Made by a program: the position numbers and the translations under genes. The notes below the pieces were generated by a model, which saw nothing but the letters and a program-made list of their open reading frames with translations, had not been told where the DNA came from and did not search any database. This document shows positions 13,054 through 64,000 of a stretch of DNA of 64,000 bases, one piece after another (within the stretch, counting starts at the first letter, position 1; each line of letters opens with the position of its first letter). Origin of the DNA: an uncultured virus (IMG/VR IMGVR_UViG_3300030101_003884) (Duplodnaviria > Heunggongvirae > Uroviricota > Caudoviricetes); IMG/VR virus record IMGVR_UViG_3300030101_003884. One strand, 5' to 3'.

Positions 13054-13475
13054 CTACACCAATATTCTACGACCTTATTCTCAGAGATCGCTTGTTCGCA
13101 GAATTTTAAAAACTTTGTGTCTTGCTCTTTGTACTCCTTGACACTATCCTCTTGGAACTGTTGCCCCCAGAAGAAACCATCTTCGGCAGGGTAGTCAGCA
13201 AAGTCTTTCTGTATCTGTTCAGCTAACTCTTTTACAACTTCCTCAGTCATATAACATGGTGCTTCTTGATCAGCATTAAAACCTAGATGGGACAGATGTC
13301 CCTCTATGTTTTCAGCAGGGTTTTGCTCTGCCCATTTCTTCGCCATGAACTGTTGTAGTCTTGCGTGTTTTCTCCAAACGAAAATGTTGTTATTATCTCC
13401 GTAATCATCTTCGTTGTAGTATTTTTCCCAATTGACATTAGTGCCTCTTAGGTGTGCGTGTTGGTCTAATCCCAT
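13047..13475 (-). CDS. Conserved phage hypothetical protein
   Basis: MGLDQ...WRKH...GFFWG...YWCSW pattern; own promoter-like sequence upstream. Confidence 0.7.
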   Translation of the reverse strand: MGLDQHAHLRGTNVNWEKYYNEDDYGDNNNIFVWRKHARLQQFMAKKWAEQNPAENIEGHLSHLGFNADQEAPCYMTEEVVKELAEQIQKDFADYPAEDGFFWGQQFQEDSVKEYKEQDTKFLKFCEQAISENKVVEYWCSW

Positions 13476-13510
13476 AACTTTTCCTTTTGTTAATTGTTAG
13501 TTTGTTTCTT

Positions 13511-13784: not shown

Positions 13785-13995
13785 GGGTTCTTCCAGCTGC
13801 TGCAGGTGAATCCTTCACTTCAGACTCCGCCCACGTATTTCCATTTGCAATGCAGCGCGAGCCCCGGCCACCAGTAAGAGCGTATACTTTACCAGCTTCA
13901 GGTTTGTCCCGCAGCCGGTCCTGCGAGGACCAACCACCAGGTGGTGCATTCTCCCTATTGATATCTTTCACGAGCTTCTTAAGTGTTGTCTTCAT
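13765..13995 (-). CDS. Hypothetical (putative early) protein
   Basis: 76 aa; strong AGGAGG RBS. Confidence 0.6.
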   Translation of the reverse strand: MKTTLKKLVKDINRENAPPGGWSSQDRLRDKPEAGKVYALTGGRGSRCIANGNTWAESEVKDSPAAAGRTRGSRNS

Positions 13996-14004
13996 CTTTT
14001 CCTC

Positions 14005-14153: not shown

Positions 14154-14182
14154 TACATAAGACCTGATGGGATATATGTCAA
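14154..14182 (-). promoter_or_regulatory. Putative sigma70 promoter
   Basis: TTGACA-N17-TATGTA. Confidence 0.6.
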
Positions 14183-16641: not shown

Positions 16642-16748
16642 TGGTGTATCCCAGATACACCATAGATACACCATAGATACACCATAAAAACACACTTAAA
16701 GTATTGATATATAAGCATTATTCTTCTTCGGATACACCAGATACACCA
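16642..16748. repeat. Iteron-like GATACACCA array (putative replication origin)
   Basis: Inverted copy 16642-16650; GATACACCATA x3 at 16654-16686; GATACACCA x2 at 16731-16748. Confidence 0.75.
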
Positions 16749-16979
16749 CTATTACCCCCTGAGCACTTTTTTATTTTAATTACTCTAGAATATCTATATA
16801 TAGAAAATTAATTGATCCGGTTTCCGGTGTCCATTAACCCTTATTTTCTTAGTTTTTTCCCATCACCATTAAAACAGGACACTTTAGATGAACTAGAACC
16901 GTTTGGTCAATTAAGTGCCACTTATGGCTAACTGAACATCGGCTAGCTTTAAATTAACCCCCTTAAAAAGGAGACTTAA

Positions 16980-17411: not shown

Positions 17412-17490
17412 TTAATATGGATATTTTTTCCATGTTAATTTGTTACGCTCTTGGGACTACCTTTTTTGCTCTCTTGCTAGTCCCAGGAGT
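17412..17490 (+). ncRNA. Candidate small RNA B (two hairpins)
   Basis: 13-bp stem 17447-17459/17478-17490 with 2 G-U and an 18-nt C/U loop; upstream 10-bp stem 17412-17438. Confidence 0.5.
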
Positions 17491-17512: not shown

Positions 17513-17953
17513 CTAAGCTAATCTTTTTTTATTTTCTTCATCAATTCTCTTTTTAATTTCTCTTCTCTCTTCCTTATTTTCAGCTTCACGGTACAATCTA
17601 TAAAGCTCTCTATAATTTAACCAATGATTCTGTAATTTAGTGAAATATATTTTTTTACATTTTACTAATTTTTTAAACTCGTCTCTAATCATATCAGGAT
17701 CCATATCAGCACCCCAACAAACGTCCTGGAAATCTTCAGAATTATCATAAAACCATTTATACGCATCTTCTTTCCAATAAGTTTCTTTTTTAAAACTAGA
17801 CGGATTCATGACATCTTCTAGCGCCTGGACAATAATTGCTTGAAAAAGTCTTTGTTCTGAAATTACTTTTGATTTAGTTAATTCCATGGCCAATTTAATG
17901 CCCAAAAGTTTCAACAAGCTTGGTGAGCAAGTCATAAAATTTAAGCACCTCAC
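17513..17953 (-). CDS. Conserved phage hypothetical protein (start uncertain)
   Basis: EQRLFQAIIVQALED...AYKWF...DFQDVC. Confidence 0.6.
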   Translation of the reverse strand: MRCLNFMTCSPSLLKLLGIKLAMELTKSKVISEQRLFQAIIVQALEDVMNPSSFKKETYWKEDAYKWFYDNSEDFQDVCWGADMDPDMIRDEFKKLVKCKKIYFTKLQNHWLNYRELYRLYREAENKEERREIKKRIDEENKKRLA

Positions 17954-18101
17954 GTTTTGGATAATTTAATTTTCGTGATTCTTTGTATTGCGAAAATATT
18001 AAATCAATAAAATCAGTTCTCTCCTGACCTTCCATCTCTGCCACATATGAAATAGTCTCAGTAGCTAATTTTTCTGAACGATCTGCCATCTGCATAACCA
18101 C
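17895..18101 (-). CDS. Hypothetical protein
   Basis: Helical ~65 aa ORF in operon. Confidence 0.5.
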   Translation of the reverse strand: MVMQMADRSEKLATETISYVAEMEGQERTDFIDLIFSQYKESRKLNYPKREVLKFYDLLTKLVETFGH

Positions 18102-18147
18102 GATGCGGGAAAAGATATGGATTGTGAAAAGGCACCGTGGTTACACA
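18091..18147 (-). ncRNA. Candidate anti-RBS hairpin RNA C
   Basis: 16-bp stem with 3 G-U on minus strand; 25-nt loop contains CAUAUCUUUUCC, complementary to the mRNA at 19868-19879. Confidence 0.5.
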
Positions 18148-18392
18148 TTTTTAACGACCAGCTTGAGCCCAGCAGCTTCTGCTGCTTTCTTCCTACCTGA
18201 CCGCCATCTAGCCTCGATTTTTTCGAGAAAAGAAAGACTAAAATTTCCTAAACCAAAGTCATTCCCACAATACAACTGAAACATCAAACTTGTTAACTCA
18301 TCATAAGTTTTTTTATTTGGACATACCATTACAAGTTTATCCAATGCTTGATTTAATGCTTCTTCACTGCTTTTTTTAACAGCTTTACCCAC
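18141..18392 (-). CDS. Hypothetical protein
   Basis: 83 aa; AAGGA RBS. Confidence 0.6.
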   Translation of the reverse strand: MGKAVKKSSEEALNQALDKLVMVCPNKKTYDELTSLMFQLYCGNDFGLGNFSLSFLEKIEARWRSGRKKAAEAAGLKLVVKNV

Positions 18393-18529
18393 AAAATATC
18401 CTTTTGTTAAAAGTTAATTTTATGATTCGTTGTTCGGTGAAAATAAAGTGTTTTGAAAGCCCCACTTGTTTCATTTAGGCTTAGGAATACGTTTCTATTT
18501 AATATTTGATTATAATTTGTATTGCAAGT

Positions 18530-18558
18530 AAAAAAAAGGCCCAGTCTCCCGGGCCTTT
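18530..18558 (-). terminator. Rho-independent terminator
   Basis: Minus strand AAAGGCCCGG-GAGA-CTGGGCC followed by T8. Confidence 0.8.
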
Positions 18559-18600
18559 CTTCGTCATCTCGGTTAAAGGTTAACCATCCAACCTCATAGA

Positions 18601-19616: not shown

Positions 19617-19633
19617 TATCTTTTCCTCCTTGG

Positions 19634-19870
19634 TTATTTAACGAATATTTCTTTATCTTTTCTGCCTGGTATCCATGCTTTTACTAATGGTGCATCATCT
19701 AACCCATCCATACTGTCTATATAAACAGTAAGTGGACCTGCATGAGTTTTCATTTTAATGTAACAACATCCTTTTGATCTAATGTCAAAATGGATACCTT
19801 TTGCATATCTATCTTCAAACTTATATTTTTTTCTAATTTGAAGTTCTTCTTTGTCTCTATGTTTAGACAT
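19634..19870 (-). CDS. Hypothetical protein flanked by 20-bp direct repeats
   Basis: Start MSKHRDK after AGGAGG RBS. Confidence 0.6.
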   Translation of the reverse strand: MSKHRDKEELQIRKKYKFEDRYAKGIHFDIRSKGCCYIKMKTHAGPLTVYIDSMDGLDDAPLVKAWIPGRKDKEIFVK

Positions 19871-19886
19871 ATCTTTTCCTCCTTGG

Positions 19887-19997
19887 TTAAAAAAACATTG
19901 TATAGAATAATCCACCCATCATAAGTAAAAATACTTTAGGTGAAATTAACATTACAATTAATAAAAGAAAAAAGTATAAAACGTTTTTATTGTACAT
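19887..19997 (-). CDS. Hydrophobic 36-aa micropeptide (not in ORF track)
   Basis: MYNKNVLYFFLLLIVMLISPKVFLLMMGGLFYTMFF fills the gap between two genes. Confidence 0.55.
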   Translation of the reverse strand: MYNKNVLYFFLLLIVMLISPKVFLLMMGGLFYTMFF

Positions 19998-27862: not shown

Positions 27863-28411
27863 TTATTTGTTAGTTATTTTCGTTTTATTTGCGATGTACA
27901 CACCAAACAAATCAAAAGGCAATTTCTTGCCGTTTTCAACTTGTTCTTTAACAAACGCTTTTAAAGTCATAGGTTCAACTTTTTCTTTTTTATTATAGTT
28001 GAATCCAAACTTTTCACAGACGCTTATTAATTCAGAGACTTGGTTATCTTGTCCTCTGTTAAATGAAGCTGTAACAGTATTTTTGATAAGATCTTCAAAA
28101 CCGTTATGCCTCAAATAGCCGAAGGCCTCGTCAACACGTGACTCAGGAATTTTTGCTGCGTAAAAAGGTTTAACTTCTACAGTCGAACCATCATTTAACT
28201 TCAGCAAAGATACACCAGCTTCCTGCATCATCTCTGGAATTGTTCTCTCCTCTAAATCACGAGCTTTGTTTTTTAGAGTAGATAATTTTTCTTCTTCATC
28301 TTCGATATTTTTTCGAAGACGTTTAAGTTCATTACATTTATCTGAAATAGATCTAACGCTATCTTGGCTAAGATCTATATTAGACATTTTTTCAATATCT
28401 ATTTTTTCCAT
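27863..28411 (-). CDS. Conserved replication-module protein
   Basis: EAFGYLRHNGFEDLIKN...VEPMTLKAFVKEQ; GGAGG RBS. Confidence 0.6.
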   Translation of the reverse strand: MEKIDIEKMSNIDLSQDSVRSISDKCNELKRLRKNIEDEEEKLSTLKNKARDLEERTIPEMMQEAGVSLLKLNDGSTVEVKPFYAAKIPESRVDEAFGYLRHNGFEDLIKNTVTASFNRGQDNQVSELISVCEKFGFNYNKKEKVEPMTLKAFVKEQVENGKKLPFDLFGVYIANKTKITNK

Positions 28412-28450
28412 ATTTCCTCCGCTGTTGTGATTATTTTATTTTCTTGACCT

Positions 28451-34104: not shown

Positions 34105-36504
34105 TATTGATTACCCATTAAAAAATCTAAAGCACTTATATCTGTTGCAAAAGCATCAGGACTTGTACCTTGAATTACTTTACCAGTACCAAAACTATTT
34201 AAAATACCTTGAATATCACTATTAGTATAACCCATAGTATAGAATCTATTTTTTCTTAATCTATTTTTCTCTTCCACGATGCCAAGAAGTTCTTCATATT
34301 TTTGTACTATTTTTTCATCTGGTTCAACACCTAAGAATCCAGTTAACTCTTCAATTAAATCTAAGTCTCGGTTTGTTAATNNNNNNNNNNAGAGTTCTTG
34401 CATTAACTTTTAATTTACCAAGTATTTCTGAAGCTGATGGATTACCAGCTAAGAATTTTTGTGTTTTGTTTTCAAATTTTTCTAAAACTTTATTTGTTCT
34501 TTTTTCTAAATCTTTAAACGCTTCATCACTCATATCTCCTTGAGACATTGTAAAGTCTGTTGAAACAGATCCAACAAGACCATCTTTAACTTCACCTGGT
34601 AGGTTTTTAAGAACTTCTGCAAATCCTAAAATTATTCCAGATCCTCCAATTGCTTTTCTACCTGCATCAGTGGACATTAACGCGATTTGTTCTTTTAAGA
34701 TATCAGAAGATAATTGACCATCAGCTATTAATCTTATGTTATCCATGTATGCTGCAGTATCTTTTTGTGCATAGAACTGACCTGCATCGGGTGCAGCTAA
34801 TCTGTATTGTTTACCATCATAGACATAAACCTCTCCTGTATTTTTATCTCTTTTACCCTCAAAGAATTGACCACCTTGTTCAAAGGAACCTAACTCAAAT
34901 TTACTATTACCTTGTGCATCAAGAGCATCTTTCAAAGCTTCATTTCTTAATTCTAATAAATCAGTATTGTAACTCAAAACAGTAGAAGCCCAGTCTCTGT
35001 AAGCTTCATCATTCTTCATTTTGACTAATACTTTTGCATCAATCGCAGGTCCTAAAGCATTTCCAAATATTTCAGCTGCACCTGCAAAACCACCTTTCAT
35101 TGTTTTACCTGATAGTAATCCAGCAGCTAATTTCATTAAGAATACTCTCTGAGGATTCATTTCAGTTTTTCTTGGATCTGCTCTCAAAAATTGTGTCATG
35201 TCAATTGTCTCTGCTGCTTTTTTAGCTTCATTTATTTCTGAATCTTCAGTTGGCTGTTGATTAGTTCCATTTCCTGTTTCTCCAGCAGTAGCTGATGATA
35301 TACCATCACCACCCGCATTTTTACCTTCTGGTGTTATTTTATTTTGAACTTCTTGAACTGTTTTTTCTTCTTTTATATATTGAGGGTGTTTTGGATCGTT
35401 AACTTTATTTGGAACTTGAGCGTACAGTTCATCACTTTTAACGATTGCATCTACATTGTTTGATTCAATACCACCTTCAGTGATAGCTAATGCTAAATTA
35501 GTTGCTTTATTTACATCAAGATTTTTTTGTGCCATTAATGCATTTCTTAATTCTGCAACAGCTATATTTTTATCTAACGTCCTTTGACCAAGAACTGAAT
35601 CTGCTTGCATAGCATCATCAGGACTCATAGATGCTGTTTCTTCTGTCATCATAATAGCTCTATCTTTTTCTTTTATTTTTTTAACCAATTCATCTACATC
35701 TTGAAAATATCTTCCATATTGTTTTGAATCGTCCATATACTGTCTCATTTCTCCCGCAATTCTTTGTTCAACAGATTTTGAACCTGGGGGACCCTCTGGC
35801 GTTTTATCTAAACCACCTGCAACTATACTTCCTGCAGAGGAACCACCTAAAATAATTTTTCCTAAATCACTTGAAGTCATTGGTCTTTGTCCACCAAATG
35901 AAAGATCTCTGTTAAATATATCCATAGCTTTTTTTTCATCAATGTTATTTGCTCTTGCATAATCTTTGACCATTTTTGCTTCATCGAAATATGCTTTAGT
36001 CCCACCAGTTAAAGCCATTAAACCACCAATACCTATTGCACCAATTGGATTTGATGTAGAAAATCTTGAACCTGCACCTAAAATTTTAGTTAAAGCTTTT
36101 GATGTAGGACTTTTTCCAAAAGCTAACGGCAAAGCAGCTAACTCAGAAAACGCTGCTGTTTGTATTAAGGGATCAGGTATACCCATTGCTTCAGCACCAG
36201 CATATAATGCACCAAGACCTGATAAGCCCCTCGCAAACTTTGCACTACCTGCTTTAAGTTTTGATTTACCAAAACCAGTAATATATTGACCTGATTTAGG
36301 ATCGTATGCAAAGGATTTACCCTGTGGTCCTTGAAATTGTAGTGGAAAATTTGAGTATTGTGATTTAGGAACAAATACGGGTCCCTGCTGCATTGCAGGT
36401 CCTTGCGCAAAAGTGCCAATCTTGGCTCTTATTGGTTTTAAAACTCCTTTACGAAGTGCCTCCCTTCTAAACATAGGTCTATTTAAAACTTTGTTTAAAG
36501 ACAT
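34104..36504 (-). CDS. Internal virion/ejection protein (one gene broken by N gap at 34381-34390)
   Basis: ORFs 34351-36504 and 34104-34403 abut across the gap. Confidence 0.65.
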
Positions 36505-61854: not shown

Positions 61855-62334
61855 TTACGCTATACCTGTACCACTTCTAAAGAAGTGATTATTGATTCTA
61901 ACAAGAATATTTGCATTAGCAGAAGATGTGTCAGAGTTATCTGGGTCTTGGCAAATATCAATTGCTTGAATAGCAAAAGTAGTTGCTGTACCAGAAACAC
62001 TTACATCTAGTTGCTGTTTAGATATTCCTGTTGTTGTAACACCAGTAGTGTTTGTAACAGAATAGTTCTTGTACAAATCTGCTCTAGTGAAAGCCGCGTC
62101 AGCATCAACTAAGAATACTGCATCTGGATCGTCTATGACGAATGCAGTAATATCGCTAGCAGCAATGCCACCAGGATAAAANNNNNNNNNNCCTAATGGT
62201 TCAACCATTTCTCCTTGGAAAATCGCGTCACTGTATCCTGATGCAATCGTATATCTGTTTTGAGCTCCAGCTAAAGGTGTACCGTCTAGTTTTCTGTATG
62301 GTCTTAGACCAAACTTTTCTTCGACATTAGCCAT
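61855..62334 (-). CDS. Second copy of capsid-associated protein (gap-shortened)
   Basis: Matches 390-968; N gap at 62182-62191. Confidence 0.7.
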   Translation of the reverse strand: MANVEEKFGLRPYRKLDGTPLAGAQNRYTIASGYSDAIFQGEMVEPLXXXXFYPGGIAASDITAFVIDDPDAVFLVDADAAFTRADLYKNYSVTNTTGVTTTGISKQQLDVSVSGTATTFAIQAIDICQDPDNSDTSSANANILVRINNHFFRSGTGIA

Positions 62335-62392
62335 AGTTGTTTCTCCTTATTATTATTAATCCAAGCTACATCGGGTAGGTAATGCAAAAAAA

Positions 62393-62839
62393 TTATTTTT
62401 TACGACTACCACCAAAGGTAACTCTAGACTGTCTATCAATATTGATAGGCATGTCCGGGTGTTGTTCCTTCATAAGATCCCGATCAATCGCGTCTGTTCT
62501 GTCTTGAGTTATTTTTCTAAAATACTCAGCACGACTTTTCAATATCTCCTCCGGTATCCTTGCCAACACAAGGCCACCAATTCCGATTAAACCAGCATGT
62601 TTACCTTCATAGATAACAGGATAATCATTTTCGCCTATCTCATTTAAAATGGTTTCGGCTTTAACAAATTCCCAACCTTCTCTAAGTTTTTTAGATACAT
62701 TACCTGGATCATCAAAACCATTAGTAGAAGTTCTTATCCATCTGTGTGCATAACCTTGCGGCGCAGCTGGCGCATCCAAACTGGATGGTGGAGTCCAATC
62801 TTTCTTTCTAGAAAGTTTTGTTCTAGATTCAGACTCGCG
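62393..62839 (-). CDS. Second copy of 155-aa head-module protein (start lies in gap)
   Basis: Matches 1031-1498. Confidence 0.7.
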   Translation of the reverse strand, partial: RESESRTKLSRKKDWTPPSSLDAPAAPQGYAHRWIRTSTNGFDDPGNVSKKLREGWEFVKAETILNEIGENDYPVIYEGKHAGLIGIGGLVLARIPEEILKSRAEYFRKITQDRTDAIDRDLMKEQHPDMPINIDRQSRVTFGGSRKK

Positions 62840-62879
62840 NNNNNNNNNNNNNNNNNNNNNNNNNNNNNNNNNNNNNNNN

Positions 62880-63838
62880 ACCCCTAATTTCTTAGCGATA
62901 ACTACCTGTGATTTGGTGAGTTTCACAGACTTGCGTCCACCTGATCTTCTACTAACTGAAGCTACGTTTTGGACGGGTGTAGACTTAGTTTTTTCTTCTT
63001 GAGAAGAATCGGCAAATTTCTGAGGGAAATACTCCTTCATACGTTTGTTGATTTGATTATAGTATTCATCACTCTCCGCGTCAATTCCCTCCCCTAAAAG
63101 ATCTTCATGTATTCCCATAGCGGCTGAAGTTAAAACTCTATCACTGCCAAACCAGTCATTTTTTAATGCCCAATTTTGAGCTCTTTCACTAACTTGTGGT
63201 GTTGGTTGTTCTGTTGTTTTTTCAGCAGGTTGTGATTCTACTTCTTTTTTCTTTGACTCTTTATCTGCAAGTGTCATTGAAACTTTTTCTTTTTCTACAG
63301 CTAATTTTGTAAGCTTATCTTGTGCTTCCAAAATTTGATCTGTATCATTATTATCTAATGCACTTTTTAATTCAGATTTAGCTTTATCTCTTTCAGAATC
63401 AATTCTTGCATTATACTCTTTAAGATAATTAGTATCAGTATCTTCAAACTTTTTTTCAATACTTTCGTACTTATTTTTTAACCCTCTTGCATATTCAACT
63501 GCAGCTTTTTCTCTACGTTCAGCTTCTTTTGCTTGAAAAGTTAATTTTTTTATCCTTTTTTGAACTTTATCAGAATATTCAGCTAGACCTGGATCTTCTT
63601 CTTTTTGTTCAAAAGTAGGTTCAGGTTTTTCTTCTACTGATTCTTCTTTTTGTTCTTTTGTTTCTTGTAAAAGTTCTTTTGCAGTCTTTCCGCCAGTCAC
63701 ATCTGTATAACCAAGATCAACATCTTGTTTTTTTTCAAATGCTTCATTGGAAACTTCTGGAGCTTCTACATTTACTGTTTCTTCGTTTACGCCATCAGTA
63801 TCAATTTCTACTTCTGGACTTTTGTTTTCTTCAGCCAT
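62880..63838 (-). CDS. Second copy of scaffolding protein (end lies in gap)
   Basis: Matches 1500-2492 with many amino-acid differences. Confidence 0.7.
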
Positions 63839-63848
63839 TTAGTCCTCC

Positions 63849-64000
63849 TTAATAATGGTGCAAAATATCATTTGGATCAGTAATAGTAGAAATGACTTCA
63901 TCATCATTTAATACTCTTACTTCTCCGCCTTCAATTTTGAATCTTGAACCTGCGTACCTACTAAAAATTATCCAATCATTTAGTTTGCACCATGGTCCTT
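63849..64000 (-). CDS. groES: GroES-like protein, C-terminal part (second copy)
   Basis: Matches 2503-2654. Confidence 0.75.
   Translation of the reverse strand, partial: GPWCKLNDWIIFSRYAGSRFKIEGGEVRVLNDDEVISTITDPNDILHHY

Follow-up and report, generated by a model that had tools for sequence, protein, structure and literature searches.

A conserved, clade-specific RNA hairpin in an HTVC023P-type phage that may be a self-made translation switch on the phage's own genes

Described RNA elements and the phage

The c4 RNA of phages P1 and P7 and the CI RNA of phage P4 are multi-stem RNAs with a target present on the same transcript. Both are phage RNAs whose loops show antisense to the ribosome binding site (RBS) of the phage's own mRNA (available text of PMC12197685), and RNase P releases both from longer transcripts (available text of PMC5499578). 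Other phage RNAs, such as VpdS and PreS, act in trans with the help of Hfq through short, imperfect pairing with several targets (available text of PMC12197685). A different type of element couples the translation of two neighboring genes: the stop codon of the upstream gene lies within a structure that sequesters the weak Shine-Dalgarno (SD) sequence and start of the downstream gene, and the structure is unfolded by ribosomes (available text of PMC11602170).

The hairpin described here has something in common with each of these elements. As in c4 and CI, its loop is predicted to present an antisense segment that is single-stranded within a conserved structure. Unlike them, it is a single hairpin with one large loop, has no Rfam match, and has a stem that overlaps both a stop codon and the next gene's start. 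Its candidate targets are several, are unrelated to one another, and lie in transcription units other than its own, one of which, the ParB operon, is separated from it by a terminator; in addition, there is no specificity-type covariation between relatives. It is c4-like in logic and not a member of the c4/CI group. Like coupling elements, it contains an upstream stop and a sequestered weak SD/start, but it differs from plain examples in its 16-bp stem, its 22-27-nt loop of conserved sequence, and a distance of about 45-50 nt between stop and start; coupling alone would require no such conserved loop. Like the Hfq-dependent RNAs, it would use short, imperfect pairing with several targets, but it is without a terminator of its own, and its seed is already opened in the loop. 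Finally, icaR-like 5'-3' pairing in cis is not seen, since pairing with its own first gene reaches -11.5 versus -9.1 for shuffled loops with no cognate advantage (p=0.95), and the better candidate targets lie on other transcripts.

The hairpin was found in the window, the whole stretch of 64,000 nucleotides of viral DNA that was analyzed. Of the 4,890 phage records that match the DNA polymerase A encoded there, the best is Pelagibacter phage HTVC023P, with 62.7% identity, and the gene order is similar; judged by these sequence features the phage is HTVC023P-type, and its host is presumably a member of SAR11. Hfq was found in none of 3 Pelagibacter genomes, and all 3 have RNase III, although the true host of the phage may differ from these. 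HTVC023P-type phages are widespread and poorly known (available text of PMC9599517), and literature searches, together with a term search of the available text of that paper, revealed no description of a regulatory RNA in them. The part of the PMC10690425 supplements that was searched (3 of 6 files) contains no match, and the motif may still be among the candidates of that study.

Two observations concern the window as a whole. Similar genes are repeated at its ends (1-2500 and 61855-64000) and short runs of N are present near 34390 and 62190, which suggests that the assembly is joined or circularly permuted. A region of 11-bp tandem repeats and a non-coding stretch (16654-16746 and 16860-16930) resembles the same region of HTVC023P, is widely kept in relatives, and is a possible origin or packaging region.

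A conserved hairpin that overlaps a stop and a start

The hairpin (18091..18147, minus strand) is flanked upstream by a conserved gene of 83 aa (18392-18141) and downstream by a variable gene that encodes about 65 aa. Its 5' arm (18147-18132) and 3' arm (18106-18091) are predicted to form a 16-bp stem with 3 G-U pairs around an unpaired loop of 25 nt (18131-18107), at -21.6 kcal/mol, exactly the structure that had been proposed in a first-pass annotation of this DNA. None of 200 shuffled sequences is equally stable (z = -6.05), and the plus strand gives a much weaker fold (-13.9 kcal/mol, z = -2.07). The sequence also folds as DNA (-9.4 kcal/mol, z = -4.0); the RNA form is favored over a single-stranded DNA hairpin by the pattern of G-U pairs and by the placement.

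Among 271 fetched loci with the upstream 83-aa gene, 268 contain the hairpin and the remaining 3 are cut off by contig edges; the 268 are redundant, representing 83 distinct hairpins and 47 distinct loops. To assess covariation, 93 matches were aligned by fitting to the model, which gave 86 distinct rows, including one antisense hit. In this alignment 93.5% of the stem cells pair, compared with 24-49% in slid controls, and two-sided changes occur at 7 of the 16 stem pairs, a level reached in 0 of 500 shuffles; the way the alignment was built biases it toward structure, and coding further constrains the 5' arm. The stem also has many one-sided changes of the G-U type, and these point to an RNA made from the minus strand.

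The HTVC023P sister clade appears not to have the hairpin. It was not found when 54 of the 80 loci of that clade were searched with the model, nor in 20-25 kb stretches of HTVC023P, HTVC027P, 023Pt_psg01, and DSL-LC04 searched in the same way. The only matches from the sister loci and reference phages were two weak ones, both taken as chance: one (locus L353, E=0.023) is inside a reading frame, and the other (locus L364, E=0.034) has a loop of 4 nt. A plain hairpin scan of the sister loci agrees with the model search. Rfam gave 0 matches at gathering in the window and none over the hairpin at E<=5. The hairpin is thus a real, conserved, clade-specific structured RNA. It is not an intrinsic terminator, given its 25-nt loop, the lack of a U-tract, and the lack of a called terminator-like site at this place.

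Contigs from RNA libraries cover the hairpin region in 4 of 4 runs, which were picked for containing it. One such contig spans the hairpin; the contigs reveal neither ends nor strand, and no discrete RNA at the hairpin is seen among them. Two contigs from one study (X1 and X2) end at 18487-18492, near the 5' end of the leader of the 83-aa gene, and an X4 contig crosses the same place.

The transcription unit that includes the hairpin would start at a sigma-70-like promoter candidate (18499..18527, minus strand), which was read from the sequence, is not listed by a consensus scan, and is without the ATCCCAT motif of other promoters in the window. An intrinsic terminator (18531..18562, minus strand; -21.8 kcal/mol, z = -5.82, with a U-tract), for which similar hairpins are present in relatives, lies between the ParB/RHH operon and this unit. 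The 5' leader of the 83-aa gene (18438..18490, minus strand) contains two crossed stems and then an A/U-rich run that extends up to the GTG start of the gene. The crossed stems and a compensatory A-U/G-C change in the second of them suggest an H-type pseudoknot; the motif is found in 213 of the 214 loci with enough flank. The layout of this leader recalls the operator of T4 gene 32. A strict pattern did not detect the pseudoknot motif in 84 sister-clade and reference stretches, and the leader has no Rfam match. The 83-aa gene itself (18141..18392, minus strand) encodes a protein with three predicted helices that has no Pfam, PHROG, Atlas, or fold match, known RNA-binding folds included, and that was not found in GTDB genomes. 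The variable gene (17895..18095, minus strand) is followed by a third gene (17513..17890, minus strand), a homolog of HTVC023P gp19 with 30% identity, and by a terminator-like hairpin (17447-17490), at which the unit would end.

Elsewhere in the window, promoter-like sites at 14173 (minus strand), 13521, 12835, and 20610 (minus strand) share an ATCCCAT/CTCCCAT spacer motif in either orientation, which at three of the four sites is a TCYYAT direct repeat with a 10-bp period. The motif is present too in relatives and in HTVC023P and is a possible operator of a phage or host regulator. The operons that start at these promoters, 20557-ParB-RHH, 13995, 13475, and 12771, may be the earlier genes.

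The first-pass annotation did not mention that the stem overlaps both adjacent genes. The stop codon of the 83-aa gene (18143-18141) is in the 5' arm, the weak SD of the downstream gene is inside the 3' arm, and in-frame ATG codons of that gene are present at 18095, in the stem, and at 18089. This arrangement is nearly fixed: in 266 of 268 loci the stop has the same position within the 5' arm, in 267 an ATG has the same position beyond the 3' arm, and the in-frame ATG-NNN-ATG of the downstream gene is likewise found in 267. The downstream SD has a strength of -3.5, compared with -5.7 to -10.5 for strong-SD genes, and in the predicted fold the SD-AUG segment is sequestered, with an unpaired probability of 0.22 that becomes 0.43 when the 5' arm is removed. 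Identity of the protein encoded downstream is as low as about 30%. Ribosomal bypass of the stop was considered and rejected; the last codon of the 83-aa gene varies, and there is no matching in-frame landing codon.

Complementarity between the loop and phage starts

The loops of the family are 22-27 nt long and contain only 13 G residues in 1,178 loop bases (47 distinct loops). Within 150 nt of context the loop is predicted to be 90% unpaired, and its last 12 nt have a mean unpaired probability of 0.91. Column counts over the 47 distinct loops separate a variable 5' part (18122..18131, minus strand) from a conserved 3' part (18107..18121, minus strand), with conservation at the 3' 16 positions. 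The 3' part is composed of an anti-AUG(GA) segment, a spacer, and an anti-SD segment; its best-kept words, UUUCCC and UCCAU, are the complements of an SD region and of AUG-GA at their natural spacing. In many loops the 5' part repeats the anti-AUG motif in a degenerate form, and no conserved partner was found for it. The consensus of this variable half resembles the complement of a 23S rRNA site (G006:C1:348564-348576, minus strand; locus L581), a likeness that is not above chance by energy. Two other explanations of the loop sequence were rejected. A mini-gene in antisense, beginning at the plus-strand ATG of the loop, would range from 3 to 53 aa with frames that shift across lineages, and a DNA operator common to the loop, the RBS, and a promoter would depend on an opposite-strand 8-mer that is present at the 20557 promoter in 3 variants only.

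Within the window, the longest match to the loop outside the hairpin is an exact 12-nt complement at the start of gene 19870 (19868..19879, minus strand). This match, reported in the first-pass annotation, is correct, as are two shorter ones: a 10-nt exact match at the start of the ParB-like gene 19616 (19617..19626, minus strand; phrog_12305, E 1.3e-26) and a match at the start of gene 13995 (13993..14002, minus strand), which is exact for 9 nt (14002-13994) and reaches 10 with one G-U pair at the next base. A further proposed pairing (6+6) with the start of the RHH-like gene 18816 is predicted in the window and is not conserved. The sites at 19870 and 19616 are not independent, because both are copies of one exact 20-nt direct RBS repeat (19617-19636 and 19870-19889) that flanks gene 19870, the RBS of this gene being duplicated from that of the ParB-like gene. 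The repeat suggests that genes insert by recombination at this RBS, and gene 19870 is seen in 2 lineages only. Two better-conserved candidate targets had been missed: the start of the 142-aa gene 13475 (13470..13484, minus strand) and the start of gene 28411 (28405..28420, minus strand), the first gene of the DNA-replication operon. The earlier idea that the targets form one upstream operon does not hold. The ParB operon is cut off from the hairpin by the terminator, and genes 13995, 13475, and 28411 lie in other transcription units. An effect of the hairpin on ParB, 13475, or 28411 would have to be exerted in trans.

The region next to the ParB-like gene also contains an unlisted 36-aa hydrophobic ORF (19997-19887, minus strand), flanked by gene 20286 and the ParB-like region; a similar family is present in 146 of the 202 relatives tested.

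Among relatives, complementarity in the SD-to-AUG register is conserved for several families. The 9-mer of the ParB-like start is present in 25 of 42 distinct variants (28 of 42 when wobble is allowed), and 14 of 42 lack even a wobble match; for the weaker candidate 13995 it is present in 5 of 48. For gene 13475, 26 of 38 family starts pair at -13 kcal/mol or below. For gene 28411, the SD and UAUGGA are kept in 44 of 44 start variants, and its start ranks 2nd-7th among 30-68 starts in 5 of 5 long genomes, including ParB-less ones. It is the single candidate that accounts for both invariant words of the loop. Real loops are predicted to bind more strongly than shuffled loops to ParB-like starts (-14.3 versus -9.1 kcal/mol, distinct loops) and to 13475 starts (-14.2 versus -9.5 kcal/mol), and 47 of 47 loops bind well to 28411 starts of other lineages (mean -14.8 versus -10.3). 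For RHH starts the values are -10.5 versus -8.7, and for 12771 and 20557 starts real loops are no better than shuffled ones. Pairing with the start of the downstream gene itself was rejected (p=0.99), as was pairing with the start of an unannotated small membrane gene, which is good in the window but not in relatives (p=0.20). Kissing with a hairpin at 14147-14096 was also rejected; it would involve 7+5 bp here, but relatives with the same loop have unrelated hairpins at that place. The 14147-14096 segment (minus strand), which follows a conserved promoter, is a hypervariable cassette; its GC-rich hairpin RNAs vary between phages and are possibly exchangeable small RNAs.

The loop also distinguishes its own clade from the sister clade and from one Pelagibacter genome. 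With a loop core of 15 nt and a cut-off of -16 kcal/mol for strong pairing, 59 of 1,343 distinct starts of the hairpin clade qualify (8 of 159 families), although start calls are crude and some of these matches are mis-called internal ATGs; by comparison, in the hairpin-less sister clade none of 671 starts qualifies, and in Pelagibacter genome G006 none of 2,587 candidate starts. Helices of at least 12 bp with the loop are formed in 5 families, compared with a mean of 0.28 and a maximum of 2 in 60 shuffles. The starts of the ParB-like gene, 13475, and 28411 fit the loop better than any tested start of the sister clade or of G006. The families do not contribute equally: one family accounts for 47 of the 69 starts in which the 8-mer, or a variant differing by one base, is present. 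Alterations of the anti-ParB stretch are seen in 7 of 11 loop types from ParB-less phages and in 2 of 35 from ParB-bearing ones, an association that may represent 1-3 events in one weakly supported clade and that leaves 4 ParB-less loop types with the standard loop.

Several controls limit how far these matches can be read. In the window, dinucleotide-preserving shuffles of the loop match one of 88 candidate starts over at least 12 nt in 651 of 20,000 cases (3.3%), give two 10-nt matches in 1,945 of 20,000 (9.7%), and give three 9-nt matches in 3,118 of 20,000 (15.6%). The 12-nt match alone is therefore borderline, and the weight rests on conservation rather than on a single window. A C/U-rich loop pairs with any purine-rich RNA, and clade-specific RBS words are common: three other 9-mers are equally clade-specific (6 families versus 0), and 15 of 159 pseudo-loops taken from real starts match as many families as the loop does. 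The complete genome G002 has no exact match of at least 11 nt to its own loop, and HTVC023P, which has no hairpin, begins its gp01 gene with a similar SD and AUG-GA.

Co-variation of loop and RBS, which the first-pass annotation put forward as a check on its antisense proposal, was looked for in relatives for 16 genes and for gene 28411, with a result that is negative or underpowered. Cognate loop-start pairs have no advantage for any of the 16 genes, the best value being that of ParB (p=0.077), with 13475 at p=0.42 and RHH at p=0.44; the same is true of gene 28411 (p=0.62, 14 loops) and of the best two starts per locus (p=0.21, 17 loci). The power of this comparison is low because the pairing part of the loop hardly varies. 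At one locus (L382) a matched change is present in the loop and the ParB start, but at two others with the same loop (L122 and L379) the ParB site is lost. Of the original proposal that the loop is antisense to several starts, the conserved complementarity is supported, and the covariation between loop and target that was to check it is not.

Possible action of the hairpin

The reading preferred here, to which a probability of about 0.45 is given, is that the hairpin is an Hfq-independent antisense loop directed against the phage's own strong-SD starts. The stem would hold open a G-poor loop whose 3' part is the consensus complement of a strong phage start: UCCAU would cover AUG-GA or AUG-GG, and UUUUCC(C) would cover the GGARRA SD region, with U residues providing tolerance through wobble. 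The RNA would be made from its own transcription unit, as intact mRNA or as an excised piece of about 55 nt, and would pair in trans with the ParB-like, 13475, and 28411 starts, damping their translation in the cell, and perhaps timing it, without Hfq. The same stem would bury the weak SD of the next gene until it is opened by ribosomes finishing the 83-aa gene, and the hairpin probably also couples these two genes as a side function.

A somewhat doubtful alternative is that cis coupling is all that the hairpin does. In that case the weak SD/start stays hidden in the stem until the stem is melted by ribosomes that terminate on the 83-aa gene, the loop serves as an unstructured spacer rich in C and U or as a ribosome standby site, and its likeness to a complement of starts is a by-product of composition. 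The mechanism is known (available text of PMC11602170), and the fixed positions of the stop and the ATG codons, the weakness of the downstream SD, and the lack of covariation between the loop and any target would all be expected from it. However, the fixed positions partly follow from the sequence conservation of the stem itself, removal of the 5' arm raises the accessibility of the SD-AUG segment only to the modest level given above, and coupling leaves unexplained a near-invariant 3' loop with the spacing of an anti-SD plus anti-AUG in front of a protein that is itself so poorly conserved. Lack of covariation is also what would be expected if the antisense were aimed mainly at incoming related phages, as a form of superinfection exclusion, because the target would then be the starts of the clade as a whole. 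The binding of every loop to the 28411 starts of other lineages is consistent with this idea, as is the finding that non-cognate pairs are as good as cognate ones, and c4 and STnc6030 provide precedents for phage RNAs in immunity or exclusion (available text of PMC12197685). Exclusion as the main role is nevertheless very unlikely, since the same sites are present in the phage's own genes.

The loop could instead be bound by a protein, with ribosomal protein S1, the 83-aa protein, and further phage factors as candidates, or the stem could be no more than an element for RNase III processing or stability. An open, sequence-conserved loop with repeated AUC-like words, the conserved leader pseudoknot on the same transcript, and the RNase III of Pelagibacter fit this possibility, but the 83-aa protein resembles no known RNA-binding fold, and neither a protein nor a nuclease would account for complementarity in the SD-to-AUG register; this alternative is quite improbable. 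Pairing with host RNA, either 23S rRNA upstream of the GTPase-centre helices or the starts of host mRNAs, is barely credible. One 23S site of G006 can form 13 bp with the loop core (2 G-U, -17.6 kcal/mol) and binds 47 of 47 loops at -13.6 to -20.2, but dinucleotide-shuffled loops find a place in that rRNA to which they bind equally well (-18.1 versus -17.9, 16 loops), and the site is base-paired in the mature subunit. Likewise, no host start of G006 reaches the strong-pairing cut-off, and five Pelagibacter genomes contain no exact 14-mer.

The antisense reading can be extended to a generic anti-start device, a version that is unlikely as it stands. The RNA would silence strong-SD starts in the phage and in co-infecting relatives while sparing the SD-poor SAR11 host, and translation of the 83-aa gene would toggle between silencing in trans and release of the downstream genes in cis. 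If this were true, an abundant group of marine phages would have an all-RNA developmental switch; the silenced class would comprise the leader of the replication operon, the ParB-like gene, and the early gene 13475, and the toggle, the 83-aa gene, would itself be under the leader pseudoknot.

The hairpin is a conserved RNA that marks one clade and is carried on a transcript with a second conserved structure. If it acts by coupling only, it would still be a new RNA family for Rfam. If it represses several genes without Hfq, it would reveal how gene timing is achieved by a streamlined phage whose host lacks Hfq.
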